DNA of 25,620 nt from a virus (Duplodnaviria > Heunggongvirae > Uroviricota > Caudoviricetes). The notes under the pieces are model-generated. The model ran no database searches and was not told the origin of the DNA. It saw only the letters and a program-made list of their open reading frames with translations. The number at the start of each line of letters is the position of its first letter. Positions within the stretch are counted from its first letter, which is position 1. Location: the IMG/VR virus record IMGVR_UViG_2713896798_000006; one strand, given 5' to 3'. The position numbers were made by a program, and so were the translations under genes. Of the stretch, positions 4,527 to 16,848 are shown one piece after another.

Positions 4527-4718
4527 TTAAAGACCTGCCGGGATTTCGTTATTATCCTGGTGAATAACTTTATCGACCGGGTAACAGTTACCGGGAATTT
4601 TCTGTTCGGTTGCTGCAGTTACACACTCCTGCATTGTCCTGTGAACACTGACTGCAATATCAACTGGCTCTCCGGAAACAAGAAAAACTGTCAGAACAAG
4701 TGCAAATGCTGTATTCAT
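4527..4718 (-). CDS. ydfD: YdfD-like small protein (Qin prophage lysis protein family), 63 aa
   Basis: MNTAFALVLTVFLVSGEPVDIAVSVHRTMQEC...NCYPVDKVIHQDN.EIPAGL matches my recollection of K-12 YdfD; start overlaps the dicB stop by 4 nt. Confidence 0.65.
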   Translation of the reverse strand: MNTAFALVLTVFLVSGEPVDIAVSVHRTMQECVTAATEQKIPGNCYPVDKVIHQDNNEIPAGL

Positions 4719-4903
4719 TGCCAGCATCCTTTTTGCATCGGACGTAAACGGGCCAGCATTGAAAGAATGCATATTTTATTTAATAGCTCCCGTTCGTGTT
4801 TTCTCTTGTTAATGGCATCTTCAGTAAATACAGGGTTACTGATAGTGACACCAATTTCAAAACAACCTTCAGACGTATTAACGTTTGGTAATAACGTTTC
4901 CAT
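4715..4903 (-). CDS. dicB: Cell division inhibitor DicB (62 aa)
   Basis: METLLPNVNTSEGCFEIGVTISNPVFTEDAINKRK.ERELLNKICI.SMLARLR is near-identical to K-12 DicB as I recall it. Confidence 0.85.
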   Translation of the reverse strand: METLLPNVNTSEGCFEIGVTISNPVFTEDAINKRKHERELLNKICILSMLARLRPMQKGCWQ

Positions 4904-5078
4904 TATCGCGTCCTCAACAATGAATTTTGTGATGCAGTGCCTGGTGCCTCCAGGTGACGTTAACCAGTTAACAATTAACGCCGGATACAGAGCATTCCCG
5001 TTACGCCCGTAAAAGACCGCTTGTTTTAACTGTTCCGCGTGCGCTTAGCCGCATTCACCGCATCACAAAATTCACTTT

Positions 5079-5136
5079 AAAAAGGGCGGCAGAGCAGCCA
5101 CGGAGTAAAACTGATACCGCCAAACGTCACCAGAAA
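5079..5136 (-). ncRNA. dicF: DicF small RNA (ftsZ-targeting sRNA of the dicB operon)
   Basis: Reverse complement of 5084..5136 reads TTTCTGGTGACGTTTGGCGGTATCAGTTTTACTCCGTGGCTGCTCTGCCGCCC followed by TTTTT, matching the ~53-nt DicF sequence as I recall it; lies about 175 nt upstream of dicB. Confidence 0.8.
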
Positions 5137-5175
5137 ATTGATAACAGAGGGCGTTGCAGCGGGGTTGTCACTTAA

Positions 5176-6371
<1,196 letters not shown>

Positions 6372-6677
6372 TTAAGCGTATGGTCAACCTGACAACCCGG
6401 TGTCCTCAACGGGGGAAGGAATAACCCCGCCATACTTACCGCCGCGCCATTTCGCGGATTGCCACAACCGGAAGCGCACGGTCGACGAAAATTTAACGAC
6501 AGGCTATCTATGAACCAGCTACCTCGCCGTGCGCTTTCGCGTTATGGTCTGACTTTTCAGGGAAATATCCTTTCAGTAAACTGTCAGTGCCGGATGCTCA
6601 CCCGTGTCCGGCGCAAGCACTCCACCTCACCCGTGGAGAACTCCTTAATTACCAACCTTAGCTTCGTTGGTTAGCTA

Positions 6678-6896
6678 TTAACGCGGGTATGTAATCATTC
6701 TGGCAATGGTTAATGCCGCTGCTTTTTCCAGATTGGTGATATCCTGCTCCAGAGAGGACAGATTTTCAGCCTGCTTAGCCCTGACTTCATTAGCCCATTT
6801 CAGATCCTGCGCTGCATTAATTTTCTGGTGCATCCACTCATAAAGTTCATCATTGGTATAGTCTGGCGCGATGATGACGGGTTCTCGTTTCTGCAT
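6678..6896 (-). CDS. Small protein, 72 aa, in the position and size of Qin YdfC
   Basis: ORF follows ydfB-like with a GAGGAA ribosome-binding site; length and operon position match ydfC; sequence identity not verified. Confidence 0.5.
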   Translation of the reverse strand: MQKREPVIIAPDYTNDELYEWMHQKINAAQDLKWANEVRAKQAENLSSLEQDITNLEKAAALTIARMITYPR

Positions 6897-6925
6897 ACTG
6901 ATTCCTCGCGGTGCTGTTTCGCTTA

Positions 6926-7054
6926 TCAGCCATTAGATTTTGCCGAACTGGAAAGCACCTGTTTAAATTCGTTGAAGCTGTGAGCTTCTTCGCCTTCGGC
7001 AAGGCCTTCGAAGTATTCTTCGTAAGCCTTTTCCATGATTGTGTCGAAATCCAT
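6926..7054 (-). CDS. ydfB: YdfB-like small protein (42 aa)
   Basis: Not in the ORF track (under 60 aa); manual translation MDFDTIMEKAYEEYFEGLAEGEEAHSFNEFKQVLSSSAKSNG; start ATG lies 1 nt after the ydfA stop (tight coupling). Confidence 0.55.
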   Translation of the reverse strand: MDFDTIMEKAYEEYFEGLAEGEEAHSFNEFKQVLSSSAKSNG

Positions 7055-7055
7055 A

Positions 7056-7211
7056 TCACCCACCTGAATTTCTTTCCAGCCAGCGACGCGCTCCAGATTC
7101 GGTTTTAAACGTTTTGCTTTTGGTATACGTCATTGCGGTGAACGTACCGTACTGGTTGGGGAACACGCCACATACCAGAGATTCGCTGTTGCCAAGATCG
7201 ATAGTATCCAT
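7056..7211 (-). CDS. ydfA: YdfA-like small protein (51 aa)
   Basis: C-terminal 51 aa of track ORF 7056..7292: MDTIDLGNSESLVCGVFPNQYGTFTAMTYTKSKTFKTESGARRWLERNSGG, matching my recollection of K-12 YdfA. Confidence 0.6.
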   Translation of the reverse strand: MDTIDLGNSESLVCGVFPNQYGTFTAMTYTKSKTFKTESGARRWLERNSGG

Positions 7212-7392
7212 GCTGACCTCATTTCCCCTTAACGCCGGGGTAGCGGAACAAAAACCTGCTGCATAGTTATTAAAGTTGAACCCTGCCGTCATGTTCTTAC
7301 GCCTCGGGCTGGCTACTTAACCCGTGACCACTGCCTGGTAACTCGAGGTATTGCCCTGTATTGTGTGGGACGGGATGGGTTGGTATGGGAAA

Positions 7393-7434
7393 ACTATAGG
7401 AAATGCCTAATTACTTGTCAATAGGCTATGCCTA
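7393..7434 (-). promoter_or_regulatory. Leftward PL-like promoter with overlapping operator palindrome, predicted to drive ydfA-ydfB-ydfC-dicF-dicB-ydfD
   Basis: Minus strand reads TTGACA (plus 7416..7421), 17-bp spacer, TATAGT (plus 7393..7398); operator TAGGCTATGCCTA at 7422..7434 abuts the -35 and a half-site GCCTAAT lies in the spacer. Confidence 0.5.
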
Positions 7435-7529
7435 ATAATTTGGGCGCAACCTAATAGGTGATGGTTTGTGGAAGAGGTAGTAGGAGTTAACTAACGGGAA
7501 CTAGGAATTTCCCGTCGGACCATATAAGT

Positions 7530-8006
7530 TTAAGTTCCTGTCTTGGTGATGTTCTGGCTTTTCCGTTTTGATTCTTGATTTTTCAGATAGTTAGCTACCT
7601 TCATTTCCATTGCGGCAATGTAGGCGCGAACGTCATGATCAACCCAACTAGGCTCCGTAGCATTTCCAGATAAGATGAAAGCCACAATTGCTCTTTTTTC
7701 ATCAGAGGCGGCTTGATAAAGGCTGTTTATGTCTAAAAGTTCACTTTTTGTATCTGAAGTGGATGGGGTTGGTATGGGGTATTCGTTAAGCCCCCAATGC
7801 TCTGGACCAACCACATCAGAAAAGAAACGCCATAGTTCTGGAAGTTTGTCTTTACTTATCGAACCTTTCTTAATCCAGTCATGGATTGATGGTGGTTGGA
7901 CTTTGAAATGACGTGCGATTTCCGCCTTTGATTTGACGGCTCCTGATGCAATTTTTTTGTTAATGGCCTGCTCTATCGCTCGGCCTAAGTCTTTACCACT
8001 AAGCAT
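7530..8006 (-). CDS. Prophage repressor, HTH DNA-binding protein (158 aa; RacR-like by size and context)
   Basis: N-terminal HTH-like segment SKAEIARHFKVQPPSIHDWIKKG; flanked on both sides by operator palindromes; divergent from a Cro-position gene. Confidence 0.65.
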   Translation of the reverse strand: MLSGKDLGRAIEQAINKKIASGAVKSKAEIARHFKVQPPSIHDWIKKGSISKDKLPELWRFFSDVVGPEHWGLNEYPIPTPSTSDTKSELLDINSLYQAASDEKRAIVAFILSGNATEPSWVDHDVRAYIAAMEMKVANYLKNQESKRKSQNITKTGT

Positions 8007-8034
8007 TGCTTAATAGTCTCCTATGCGCATCGCG

Positions 8035-8103
8035 TTAGGCAATCCCTACTCTCGATGTATTAGGCATAGCCTATTGACAATTTCATTAGGCTAAGCCTAA
8101 TAT
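8035..8103 (+). promoter_or_regulatory. Rightward PR-like promoter with operator sites
   Basis: TTGACA (8074..8079), 18-bp spacer, TAATAT (8098..8103); palindromes TAGGCATAGCCTA (8061..8073) and TTAGGCTAAGCCTAA (8087..8101) plus half-site TTAGGC (8035..8040). Confidence 0.55.
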
Positions 8104-8130
8104 TGTTGCGTGTTTTTTGGAGTTCATTCG

Positions 8131-8454
8131 ATGAAAAAAGATAACTATTCATTCAAACGAGCTTGTGCTGTTGTCGGTGGGCAATCAGCAATGGCTAGGC
8201 TTTTAGGTGTATCTCCTCCAAGCGTAAATCAATGGATCAAAGGTGTACGTCAGTTACCTGCTGAGAGATGTCCTGCGATTGAACGAGCAACAAAAGGTGG
8301 TGTTCTGTGTGAAGAACTTCGTCCTGATGTTGATTGGACATACTTACGACGCTCGTCATGTTATTCGCAGAATATGTCGATGAAGCAACCAAATGACGAA
8401 AACGATCATACCCGAAGCATCAAGAGGCAAATGATTCATGAAAATCAAACATGA
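8131..8454 (+). CDS. Cro-position HTH protein, YdaS-like
   Basis: ATG at 8131 preceded by GGAG; sequence MKKDNYSFKRACAVVGGQSAMARLLGVSPPSVNQWIKGVRQLPAERCPAIERATKG resembles Rac YdaS; the track start at 8110 is a GTG. Confidence 0.6.
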   Translation: MKKDNYSFKRACAVVGGQSAMARLLGVSPPSVNQWIKGVRQLPAERCPAIERATKGGVLCEELRPDVDWTYLRRSSCYSQNMSMKQPNDENDHTRSIKRQMIHENQT

Positions 8455-8863
8455 GCACATCCGCATGGCGATGAATGCCTGGGCATACCCTGATGGTGAG
8501 AAAGTTCCTGCAGCTGAAATAGCCCGGACTTATTTCGAACTGGGGATGACGTTCCCTGAACTGTACGACGACAGCCATCCGGAAGCCCTGGCCCGTAATA
8601 CCCAGAAAATTTTCCGTTGGCTGGATAAAGACACCCCTGATGCTGTTGAAAAAATGCAGGCTCTGTTACCGGCGATCGAAAAGGCGATGCCGCCTTTGCT
8701 GGTGGCCCGTATGCGCAGCCACAGTTCTGAATATTACCGTGAGATCGTCGAACGGAGGGATCGGCTGGTGAAGGATGTCGATGATTTTGTTGCGTCAGCG
8801 GTTGTTTTGTATGACCAGATGAATCGCGGCGGCCCGGCAGGGAATGCTGTGGTGATGCACTAA
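8438..8863 (+). CDS. YdaT-like protein (141 aa)
   Basis: Overlaps the end of the YdaS-like gene; size and context match Rac YdaT (140 aa). Confidence 0.55.
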   Translation: MKIKHEHIRMAMNAWAYPDGEKVPAAEIARTYFELGMTFPELYDDSHPEALARNTQKIFRWLDKDTPDAVEKMQALLPAIEKAMPPLLVARMRSHSSEYYREIVERRDRLVKDVDDFVASAVVLYDQMNRGGPAGNAVVMH

Positions 8864-8870
8864 AAGCACG

Positions 8871-9848
8871 GTGTTCGGGGGTTTTATGAGCAGCAAGCTT
8901 CATGGTCTTGTCTGGGAAGGGTGCGCCTTCACCGGCATGATCTTATCCAGGGTGGCGGTTATGGCCCGTCTTGCAGACTACAGCAATGACGAGGGCGTGT
9001 CATGGCCTGCCATTGAAACTATCCGGCGTCAGATCGGTGCAAGAAGTGAATCCACAGTGAAATCGGCTATTGCAGAACTGGCGAAAGAGGGCTGGCTGAC
9101 GAAGGAAGAGCGTAAGGTCGGTGGGCGTAATGTAAGCAATATCTATCGGCTTAATGTGGAAAAACTCGAAGCAGCTGCGGCGGCGGCGCGTGAGTCATAT
9201 AAACCGAAAAGAAAAATTAGCCCGGCAAAAAATGACCCGTTAACAGTTGACCCGTCAAATATTGACCCCTCAACGGTTGACCCGTCAAATTTTGATGGAT
9301 CAACTGTTGATAAAAAACTGCCGATTAGGGGGGCGATGATTGACCCCGATCCGTCAGTATTAAAACCTGATCCGTCAGATAAAAGATCTTCTTGTCCGGA
9401 CGCTTCGCAACCGGACCCGCAGACGGCTGAACAGGATTTTTTAACCCGACACCCTGACGCGGTTGTGTTCAGTGCGAAAAAACGCCAGTGGGGAAGTCAG
9501 GAAGATTTGGTGTGCGCACAGTGGATCTGGGGACGAATCGTGAGTCTTTACGAGCAGGCGGCCAGCGATGATGGCGAGATCACTAGACCGAAAGAACCCA
9601 ACTGGACAGCATGGGCCAATGACGTTCGCACAATGCGGATGCTGGATGGCAGAACTCACAGACAAATTTGTGAAATGTTTGGGCGTCTCCAGCGGGATTC
9701 GTTCTGGGTAAAAAACATCATGAGTCCGGCAAAACTCCGGGAAAAATGGGATGAACTGGTTATCCGCCTGGGGCGTTCGCCTGCGCAGCGTTGCGTGAAT
9801 CACATTTCTGAACCGGACACTGAAATACCGCCGGGATTCAGGGGGTGA
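8871..9848 (+). CDS. Replication initiator (lambda O-like) containing the iteron array; start may be at 8886 (MSSKLHG)
   Basis: N-terminal wHTH-like region; internal 15-bp-period iterons encoding DPLTVDPSNIDPSTVDPSNFDGSTVD; immediately followed by a DnaC-like gene. Confidence 0.7.
   Translation: MFGGFMSSKLHGLVWEGCAFTGMILSRVAVMARLADYSNDEGVSWPAIETIRRQIGARSESTVKSAIAELAKEGWLTKEERKVGGRNVSNIYRLNVEKLEAAAAAARESYKPKRKISPAKNDPLTVDPSNIDPSTVDPSNFDGSTVDKKLPIRGAMIDPDPSVLKPDPSDKRSSCPDASQPDPQTAEQDFLTRHPDAVVFSAKKRQWGSQEDLVCAQWIWGRIVSLYEQAASDDGEITRPKEPNWTAWANDVRTMRMLDGRTHRQICEMFGRLQRDSFWVKNIMSPAKLREKWDELVIRLGRSPAQRCVNHISEPDTEIPPGFRG
9232..9303. repeat. Putative replication origin iterons: five 12-bp near-palindromic repeats at 15-bp spacing
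   Basis: ATGACCCGTTAA, TTGACCCGTCAA, TTGACCCCTCAA, TTGACCCGTCAA, TTGATGGATCAA starting at 9232, 9247, 9262, 9277, 9292; degenerate copies at about 9338 and 9367. Confidence 0.6.
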
Positions 9849-12693: not shown

Positions 12694-12908
12694 GGTAAAA
12701 ACGGTTTGCGGTAAAGCGAGAGTTAAGTAGAATTGCTGCGGGTGCTTGAGGCTGTCTGCCTCGGGCATGCCACCGTAAGGCAGACAGAGAAAAGCCCCAG
12801 TTAACATTACGCGTCCTGCAAGACGCCTAACATTAATCTGAGGCCAATTTCATGCTAGACATATGTAGGTTAGCCTCTTACGCGCCGAAAGGCAAGGAGA
12901 AGCAGGCT

Positions 12909-13064
12909 ATGAAGCAGCAAAAGGCGATGTTAATCGCCCTGATCGTCATCTGTATCACCGTCATAGTGACGGCACTGGTAACGAGGAAAGACCTCTGCGA
13001 GGTACGAATCCGAACCGGCCAGACGGAGGTCGCTGTCTTCACAGCTTACGAACCTGAGGAGTAA
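12909..13064 (+). CDS. hokD: Hok/Gef family type I toxin (51 aa)
   Basis: MKQQKAMLIALIVICITVIVTALVTRKDLCEVRIRTGQTEVAVFTAYEPEE is essentially K-12 HokD as I recall it; followed by a terminator; the track ORF extends upstream in frame from 12852. Confidence 0.85.
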   Translation: MKQQKAMLIALIVICITVIVTALVTRKDLCEVRIRTGQTEVAVFTAYEPEE

Positions 13065-16530: not shown

Positions 16531-16695
16531 TTTTTTTGTTTACTGTTTATTAAAAATACTACTGCATGGTGAATCCCCCTGTGCGGAGGGGCAATCAGCA
16601 ACCAGGTATATGTGATAATCGCGGATTCAGGTGCTGATACTGAATTCACCGGGAGGCACCCGGCACCATGCAAGAAAAAGAATGTGCATGCAAAC

Positions 16696-16723
16696 ATGCC
16701 CCTCTCCTGAGGGGCATTTTTAT
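16696..16723 (+). terminator. Rho-independent terminator (plus strand)
   Basis: 9-bp stem ATGCCCCTC/GAGGGGCAT, loop tcct, then ttttta. Confidence 0.55.
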
Positions 16724-16724
16724 G

Positions 16725-16752
16725 GGTAAAAAATGCCCGAATGGGTTCGGGC
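16725..16752 (-). terminator. Rho-independent terminator (minus strand), back to back with the plus-strand one
   Basis: Stem gcccgaa/ttcgggc with loop tggg; on the minus strand it is followed by the U-run complementary to ggtaaaaaat. Confidence 0.4.
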
Positions 16753-16848
16753 AATAGCATGAGATACTGATATTGTTGTGTTGTTATCGTGTGGATTTTA
16801 ACCAGGGTTTATCAGGCTGCGCAACTGCGTGGCCTTTTTTCATTTCTT

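Follow-up and report, generated by a model that had tools for sequence, protein, structure and literature searches.

Introduction

Few transcription factors of Escherichia coli K-12 are essential, and one of these is RacR (PMC5700373), the repressor of the Rac prophage. A relative of this system is described here from a 25,620-bp stretch of viral DNA (IMG/VR record IMGVR_UViG_2713896798_000006), called the window below, with the focus primarily on two clusters of palindromic operators that lie on either side of its racR gene and on the promoter that each of them overlaps. In K-12, the 123-bp racR-ydaS intergenic region holds palindromic GCCTAA/TTAGGC repeats (PMC5700373), and RacR forms three complexes with this region in electrophoretic mobility shift assays, is found on it by chromatin immunoprecipitation with quantitative PCR and represses a reporter (PMC5700373, 2017). 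DNase I footprinting of RacR gave the consensus (T/A)TAGGC-n3-GCCTA(T/A) (PMC9638921, 2022), and primer extension gave a single ydaS start behind the hexamers TTGACA/TAATAT, the activity being abolished when the -10 was changed to CCCGGG (PMC9638921). In addition, RacR is an octamer by size exclusion and competes with YdaS for the operators (PMC11014345), and later papers on K-12 describe four inverted repeats and a CII-like protein, YdaT, whose target box covers the ATG of its own gene (PMC11014345, PMC11879457); YdaT also protects the PydaS region (PMC11879457).

The accessible publications on K-12 Rac treat the racR-ydaS intergenic sites only. The 2022 footprinting paper (PMC9638921) makes no mention of ydaF, ydaG, kilR, looping or an octamer, and the RacR regulon has been described as "not yet characterized in detail" (PMC11014345). 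The right half of the arrangement in the window, that is, the sites between racR and ydaS, is already published, and the left half, beyond the end of racR, is its expected counterpart. Conter et al. reportedly sequenced the corresponding part of Rac in 1996. A description of the left half was not found in the accessible literature, and a prior account is possible, for example in that paper (J Bacteriol 178:5100).

Operators and promoters on both sides of racR

The operator motif TAGGCNNNGCCTA, the exact palindrome TAGGC-N3-GCCTA, was searched across the entire window. It occurs three times (OL2, OR2 and OR1 in Table 1), against an expectation of 0.00 from 100 dinucleotide shuffles, none of which gave any. 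An earlier note, made from the sequence of the window without database searches, had picked out these three palindromes, and all of them are exact, except that the third was drawn 2 bp too long, to 8101 instead of 8099; the search for the palindrome elsewhere that the note had proposed finds no other exact site in the window. When one mismatch is allowed, there are five sites against 0.42 expected, a number reached by no shuffle, and all five fall in the two clusters on either side of racR. The two sites with one mismatch, OL1 and OR3, are the only ones of their kind in the window and each lies 25 bp from an exact palindrome, so that what the note had called half-sites are indeed extra sites, but near-complete palindromes. 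The class with two mismatches is not above chance in the window scan (8 seen against 6.8 expected), and two of its members, the one at 7441-7453 and OR4 across the racR ATG, were kept solely for their position and conservation. The right cluster (8000-8099) consists of four sites with 0, 0, 1 and 2 mismatches, spaced 36, 25 and 26 bp from centre to centre, and the left cluster (7397-7453) consists of two sites with 0 and 1 mismatch and one candidate with two mismatches, a class not above chance, spaced 25 and 19 bp. The two clusters are about 0.64 kb apart (559-690 bp centre to centre).

A scan of 6600-8900 for consensus promoters gives exactly two sites, and these are the leftward TTGACA-17-TATAGT and the rightward TTGACA-18-TAATAT already singled out by the note. 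The start of the leftward one is predicted near 7386. Both promoters abut an exact operator, and both do so in identical register; chance cannot explain this. Owing to the shared register, a 23-nucleotide (nt) perfect inverted repeat joins the two sides (7415-7437 and 8058-8080). In the direction of transcription the left cassette reads ATTAGGCATAGCCTA-TTGACA-AGTAA-TTAGGCATTTCCTATAGT and the right one reads TTAGGCATAGCCTA-TTGACA-ATTTCA-TTAGGCTAAGCCTAATAT, and the design is the same in both: within about 45 bp, an operator abuts the -35, and a second operator, 25-26 bp further along, occupies the spacer and extends into the first bases of the -10. The left cassette (7393-7434) lies 96 bp past the racR stop codon and is co-directional with racR. 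At the level of the sequence, racR thus lies, as the repressor gene of lambda does, between two operator clusters, each overlapping an early promoter that reads outwards.

The locus is best read as the lysogeny-maintenance (immunity) module of a Rac-type lambdoid prophage, in which RacR dimers exclude RNA polymerase at both cassettes and the extra right sites serve autoregulation, and the probability of this reading is put at about 0.85. RacR dimers would bind palindromes of 13-17 bp, (A)TTAGGC-N3-GCCTAA(T), in the two clusters flanking racR, and two adjacent dimers per cassette would keep RNA polymerase off a near-consensus sigma-70 promoter by steric hindrance. The right cassette (8061-8103) would silence the Cro-like ydaS, the CII-like ydaT and the replication operon; autoregulation would come from the sites at 8036-8048 and 8000-8012, which lie across the promoters and the start codon of racR; and the left cassette would silence the early-left operon, i.e., DUF1391, ydfC, (the insertion sequence IS5), dicF, dicB, an exonuclease gene, xis and int.

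Table 1. Operators, promoters, genes and other features of the window (positions are those of the 25,620-bp stretch)
Feature	Position	Strand	Description
OL1 operator, TAGGAAATGCCTA	7397..7409		One mismatch; covers the spacer and the first -10 bases of the leftward promoter
OL2 operator, TAGGCTATGCCTA	7422..7434		Exact; abuts the -35 of the leftward promoter; part of the 23-nt inverted repeat; half-sites conserved, N3 varies
Candidate weak third left site, TGGGCGCAACCTA	7441..7453		Two mismatches; span 7441..7459 with the overlapping palindrome ACCTAATAGGT at 7449-7459
OR4 degenerate operator, TAAGCATTGCTTA	8000..8012		Spans the racR start codon; invariant in 47 distinct sequences; K-12 counterpart is a published operator with the racR ATG in its spacer (PMC9638921)
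OR3 operator, TAGGCAATCCCTA	8036..8048		One mismatch; racR promoter region; invariant in the footprint; equivalent K-12 region protected by RacR at higher concentration (PMC9638921)
OR2 operator, TAGGCATAGCCTA	8061..8073		Exact; abuts the -35 of the rightward promoter
OR1 operator, TAGGCTAAGCCTA	8087..8099		Exact; ends on the first two bases of the rightward -10; equivalent K-12 promoter region protected first, at the lowest RacR concentration (PMC9638921)
Leftward PL-type sigma-70 promoter, TTGACA-17-TATAGT	7421..7393	minus	-35 at 7421..7416, -10 at 7398..7393; 11/12 match
Rightward PR-type promoter (PydaS), TTGACA-18-TAATAT	8074..8103	plus	10/12 match
racR, CI-analogue repressor of 158 amino acids (aa)	7530..8006	minus	N-terminal helix-turn-helix (HTH) and small non-S24 C-terminal domain
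ydaS-like Cro analogue, 107 aa	8131..8454	plus	PF15943, 3.8e-30; P22_Cro, 1e-8
YdaT box, ATGATTCATGAAAATCAA	8431..8448	plus	Exact match; spans the start codon (8438) of the ydaT-like gene; same sequence as the footprinted K-12 Rac site (PMC11879457)
ydaT-like CII analogue, 141 aa	8438..8863	plus	PF06254, 2.8e-10
Proximal left operon	6678..7211	minus	DUF1391/ydfA-like 7056-7211, ydaG-like small open reading frame (ORF) 6926-7063, ydfC 6678-6896; from Pfam and RefSeq of the identical strain
IS5	5176..6371 (approx.)	minus	Target duplication TTAA at 5172-5175 and 6372-6375; 326-aa transposase ORF 5323-6303 (minus)
Distal left operon	4715..5135	minus	dicF small RNA (sRNA) 5084-5135 (Rfam RF00039, 75 bits), dicB 4715-4903 (PF05358, 4.5e-38)

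Some further elements were noticed around the left cassette. The palindrome ACCTAATAGGT, between the racR stop codon and the left operators, is invariant in the first three aligned lineages and nearly invariant over 34 distinct Escherichia-type sequences, and it, or the site at 7441-7453, could be a weak third left operator or the site of another factor. A 13-nt exact direct repeat, GGGTTGGTATGGG, occurs at 7377-7389, where the leftward start is predicted, and at 7766-7778, within racR, and has no conserved counterpart in K-12. The predicted leftward leader, which runs for about 175 nt ahead of the DUF1391 start codon, is rich in C and poor in G over its first 40 nt (7347-7386, minus; 17 C, 4 G) and there resembles a Rho-loading (rut) site.

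Relation to the K-12 orthologue

The predicted repressor gene of 158 codons is present as an ORF and encodes RacR: its product belongs to the NCBIfam equivalog NF049929 (246.3 bits against a cutoff of 200, E = 1.2e-73, residues 1-145 of 158), carries the same name in the RefSeq annotation and is 91% identical to K-12 RacR. No Pfam family matches it at E <= 0.01, the Peptidase_S24 autocleavage domain included, so that induction via RecA-stimulated autocleavage is not expected, and a search of solved structures found no relative in the PDB; its domain layout has been treated in a published AlphaFold analysis. The YdaS- and YdaT-like genes that had been placed to the right of it are borne out by their Pfam matches (Table 1).

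K-12 Rac and the window share the orthologous repressor, the operator consensus, the PydaS hexamers TTGACA/TAATAT, the four right-hand sites and the YdaT box, and the left cassette is also present in K-12, there 98 bp downstream of racR. Nucleotide identity over 7300-8200 is 87.5%, and the operators and hexamers align invariant, column for column. Since these are invariant and the YdaT box is exact, the right half of the locus is the orthologue of the experimentally defined element, with consensus operators in the racR-ydaS intergenic region and a divergent ydaS-ydaT operon behind TTGACA-18-TAATAT. RacR binding to, and repression from, the right sites of the window may be expected from the invariant operators and the closely similar protein. 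The differences are the divergence of about 12% in nucleotides, other N3 cores and the -10 equivalent to that of PracR3. This last is GAGAAT in K-12 and GAGACT here (8015-8020, minus), so that the strength of the racR promoter may differ in this lineage. Furthermore, the left cargo is ydaG-ydaF-kilR-recET in K-12 Rac, whereas it is Qin-like here (DUF1391, ydfC, dicF, dicB, exonuclease), and the window has IS5 in its left operon and is inserted next to potABCD.

Conservation of the left cassette

Two sets of loci were compared, one chosen by the protein and the other by the DNA. Among 12 loci retrieved with the RacR protein alone, the left operator doublet with TTGACA follows the repressor gene in E. 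coli, E. ruysiae, Mixta, Proteus, a metagenome-assembled genome (MAG) of the Pseudomonadota and two Achromobacter. The other set came from a scan of phage contigs with the operator and -35 pattern, which gave at least 120 loci; as they were selected by the cassette, the counts that follow, all among the matches listed, are measures of position and orientation. At least 66 loci have one cassette per strand, always divergent and 626-630 bp apart. There are 43 distinct repressors, which carry the RacR N-terminal domain, are 147-366 aa long and go down to 43% identity; for 40 of them, in Escherichia, Mixta, Proteus and Achromobacter among others, a co-directional cassette is found 62-1436 bp beyond the stop codon, and in most cases a divergent one precedes the ATG by 28-55 bp. 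In addition, 110 of 111 distinct cassettes have a second operator 24-26 nt downstream, although the search pattern did not demand it. In the Escherichia-type footprint, built from 34 distinct sequences for the left side and 47 for the right, variation is seen in the N3 cores and spacers and none in the half-sites and hexamers.

Behind the left cassette, the gene content is very different from one lineage to another, and this variety of downstream cargo indicates that the cassette travels with the repressor. The presence of a gene behind the cassette was also tried as a test of the promoter and was rejected: a co-directional ORF of at least 40 aa follows within 300 nt in 58 of 59 lineages, yet this is so at 514 of 600 random positions too, and the comparison therefore does not discriminate and illustrates only the variety of the cargo.

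The left cassette might be a non-functional remnant of an inverted duplication or of recombination between immunity regions, hitch-hiking beside racR, and for this speak the perfect inverted repeat with the right cassette and the mosaic junction with Qin-type genes just past the left one. Decay, however, would not spare the half-sites and hexamers while N3 cores, spacers and flanks vary among the 34 distinct Escherichia sequences, nor does a remnant account for persistence in Mixta, Proteus and Achromobacter, with repressors of as little as 43% N-terminal-domain identity, so that a remnant appears extremely improbable.

The repressors themselves vary at their C-terminal end. The Achromobacter proteins (L012 2501-3601 and L014 2501-3589) and the Aeromonas protein (L015 2501-3178) combine a near-invariant RacR N-terminal DNA-binding domain with a C-terminal Peptidase_S24 (PF00717); the Achromobacter loci have the same operator cassettes, and the Aeromonas locus has only a degenerate right-hand one. 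Set against the small unrelated C-terminal domain of enterobacterial RacR, this suggests that repressors with one and the same operator specificity have had their C-terminal domains swapped between an SOS-cleavable and a non-cleavable form. Another arrangement is seen in L058, L016 and related viral loci, where a 158-aa repressor (79% N-terminal-domain identity) is followed by a co-directional cassette about 1.4 kb past its stop codon, a gap wide enough to take extra genes ahead of the left promoter, like rexAB in lambda; a search allowing 2 mismatches found no right-hand cassette in these loci.

Evidence from K-12 transcriptomes

When RacR is lowered in K-12, ydaF, ydaG, ydaE and racC go up about 40-fold and kilR more than 70-fold, and recET, xis and int also rise by about 40-fold or more (PMC6765115). 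Moreover, CRISPR interference with Cascade placed at +3 or +58 in racR lowered racR mRNA 11-20-fold, and ydaG, kilR, ydaE, racC, recET, ralR, xisR and intR went up under the same block (bioRxiv 10.64898/2026.09.06.749655). As the leftward genes rise even though transcription from the racR promoters is blocked, these results point to a RacR-sensitive promoter beyond the block, as the left cassette predicts.

This bears on a different use of the left sites, in which they bind RacR and are only auxiliary, as anchors for a loop to the right cluster that would tighten repression or autoregulation, or as a roadblock where racR ends, TTGACA-17-TATAGT being no working promoter and the left operon being driven from elsewhere. 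The reported RacR octamer would suit the bridging of distant sites (PMC11014345), and the hexamer matches alone are not significant. A roadblock is conceivable as no intrinsic terminator was flagged between racR and the left cassette, the hairpin at the racR 3' end being unexceptional (z = -1.56, without a U-tract), and a Rho-dependent terminator inside racR is known to protect kilR (PMC4150792). Mere anchors, however, need no hexamers, and the abutting TTGACA and the -10 shared with the second operator are kept across genera, and with S24 and non-S24 repressors alike, where the flanks have fully diverged. Together with the rise of the leftward genes under an upstream block of racR transcription, this makes a purely auxiliary role unlikely.

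Another possibility is that the main user of the sites, at least on the left, is the Cro-like YdaS, or else YdaT, and not RacR. The HTH segments of YdaS and RacR are homologous (41% over 29 residues, E = 5e-6), which is in line with the published competition of the two proteins for shared sites (PMC11014345), and YdaT protects the PydaS region in K-12 (PMC11879457). It is RacR, however, that footprints exactly on the motif (PMC9638921), and its depletion suffices to derepress both arms (PMC6765115); besides, the sharing of operators by Cro-type proteins belongs to the lambda paradigm and is no alternative to it. Use of the sites chiefly by YdaS or YdaT is accordingly considered very unlikely.

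Several points weigh against the reading of the locus as an immunity module with RacR acting at both cassettes. No downstream cassette was found within 2.0-2.4 kb in three of the protein-chosen loci, namely Klebsiella L010, the Nitrosomonas MAG L013 and Aeromonas L015, and the counts from the phage contigs do not measure presence. Hexamer matches are not rare: with an exact TTGACA and a -10 of at least 4/6 matches, the window has 2, the shuffles give 0.84, and a count of 2 or more is reached by 21% of them, for which reason the weight has been put on operator register and conservation. On the left, OL1 departs from the motif at one position, and the third site is weak. The leftward derepression in K-12 could be partly indirect, via the action of YdaS/YdaT or via excision, and in the window IS5 may stop transcription ahead of dicF and dicB. 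Finally, RacR binding and a start at the left cassette of the window are predictions from the sequence. The observation made in the earlier note nevertheless holds, and its interpretation, the likeness to lambda OL/PL and OR/PR, is supported, on the right side by the experiments in K-12 and on the left side by the comparative evidence and the K-12 transcriptomes.

Genes of the window and IS5 in the left operon

To the right of ydaT follow an HTH_36/DnaD-like replication gene and an ATPase. To the left, beyond dicB, lie DUF1482, an 823-aa exonuclease gene, xis and int, adjoining potABCD. In the window, a lambdoid prophage, a Rac-type immunity module is combined with a left operon of the Qin type. 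Elsewhere in the prophage, Rfam matches are found for the sok antitoxin next to hokD (12740-12914), the sRNA STnc100 (16538-16727) and the anti-GcvB sRNA AgvB (16728-16789, minus).

IS5 was delimited by comparison with the IS-free locus L001 and by reading of the junctions. It is absent from strain 2011C-4251, the flanks being otherwise 99.3-99.95% identical. The element sits between ydfC and dicF/dicB, 41 nt upstream of dicF, and is oriented as the operon. From this position, the left promoter would directly feed only DUF1391, the ydaG-like ORF and ydfC; dicF, dicB, the exonuclease, xis and int would be reached only if transcription traverses IS5 or restarts in it, and IS5 has probably cut off the division inhibitors and these other distal genes from that promoter. 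The claim that the leftward promoter feeds a dicB operon therefore stands for the presence of that cargo on the left, but for dicF and dicB it depends on reading through IS5.

Comparison with other lambdoid switches

The bacteriophage lambda arrangement OL/PL-cI-OR/PR has, like that of the window, a repressor gene between two operator clusters, each on a strong early promoter, one divergent and the other co-directional. Adjacent operators are about 24-26 bp apart from centre to centre, further right sites lie over the promoter of the repressor gene itself, genes of Cro and CII type follow rightward, and the repressor is reported to be an octamer. The spacing of the lambda operators is 23-24 bp. 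The steps of 25-26 bp in the window resemble this, so that cooperative pairs of RacR dimers are plausible, and with clusters about 0.64 kb apart and a reported octamer, a lambda-like bridging of OL and OR is a reasonable idea by analogy. However, RacR has no sequence relationship to CI and no S24 autocleavage domain. The locus has four right sites and two strong and one weak left sites, its clusters are only about 0.64 kb apart and rexAB is absent, as are an N gene and a nut site, and its left leader is C-rich. Published data also indicate that the repression of cI by Cro has no parallel in the action of YdaS on racR (PMC9638921).

In Qin, as here, a short non-cleavable repressor controls a PL-like promoter, dicBp, directly downstream of its own gene (dicA/dicC/dicBp; bioRxiv 10.1101/2023.04.14.536235). 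This promoter drives ydfA-ydfB-ydfC-dicF-dicB, and the left cargo of the window is of that type. The repressor of the window, in contrast, is a RacR equivalog and not DicA, and the operators are the RacR motif. RacR and its operators in front of Qin-like cargo indicate that a dicB-type operon was moved to another immunity specificity by mosaic recombination. The PaaR2/YdaS/YdaT region of CP-933P in E. coli O157:H7 (PMC8630535, PMC9986795) is likewise a lambdoid switch of a cryptic prophage with YdaS and YdaT genes and a near-identical YdaT box, but its maintenance repressor and the operators of that repressor are different.

Implications

A wider proposal can be made, which is held tentatively and is on balance doubtful. 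The left cassette would be the true OL/PL of RacR-type prophages, with direct control of kilR/recET in Rac, or of dicF/dicB here, and of xis-int; the octamer would reflect OL-OR bridging over about 0.64 kb and not the occupation of four intergenic sites; and the RacR N-terminal domain with its cassette would be an ancient, portable immunity module of phages of Gamma- and Betaproteobacteria, the C-terminal domain of which has been swapped between S24 and a small non-cleavable oligomerisation domain.

The paradigm of the lambdoid switch is unchanged by these findings, and what is filled in is an expected piece of a known one. If it is true, a left operator and promoter would explain the silencing of the division inhibitors (KilR, or DicF/DicB), of RecET-type recombination and of the excision genes, and also why all of these genes rise when RacR falls, and OL-OR looping would offer an alternative reading of the RacR octamer. 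In the mosaic of the window, the same toxic dicB cargo has been put under a different immunity specificity, and IS5 would be one way in which a host disarms such cargo.

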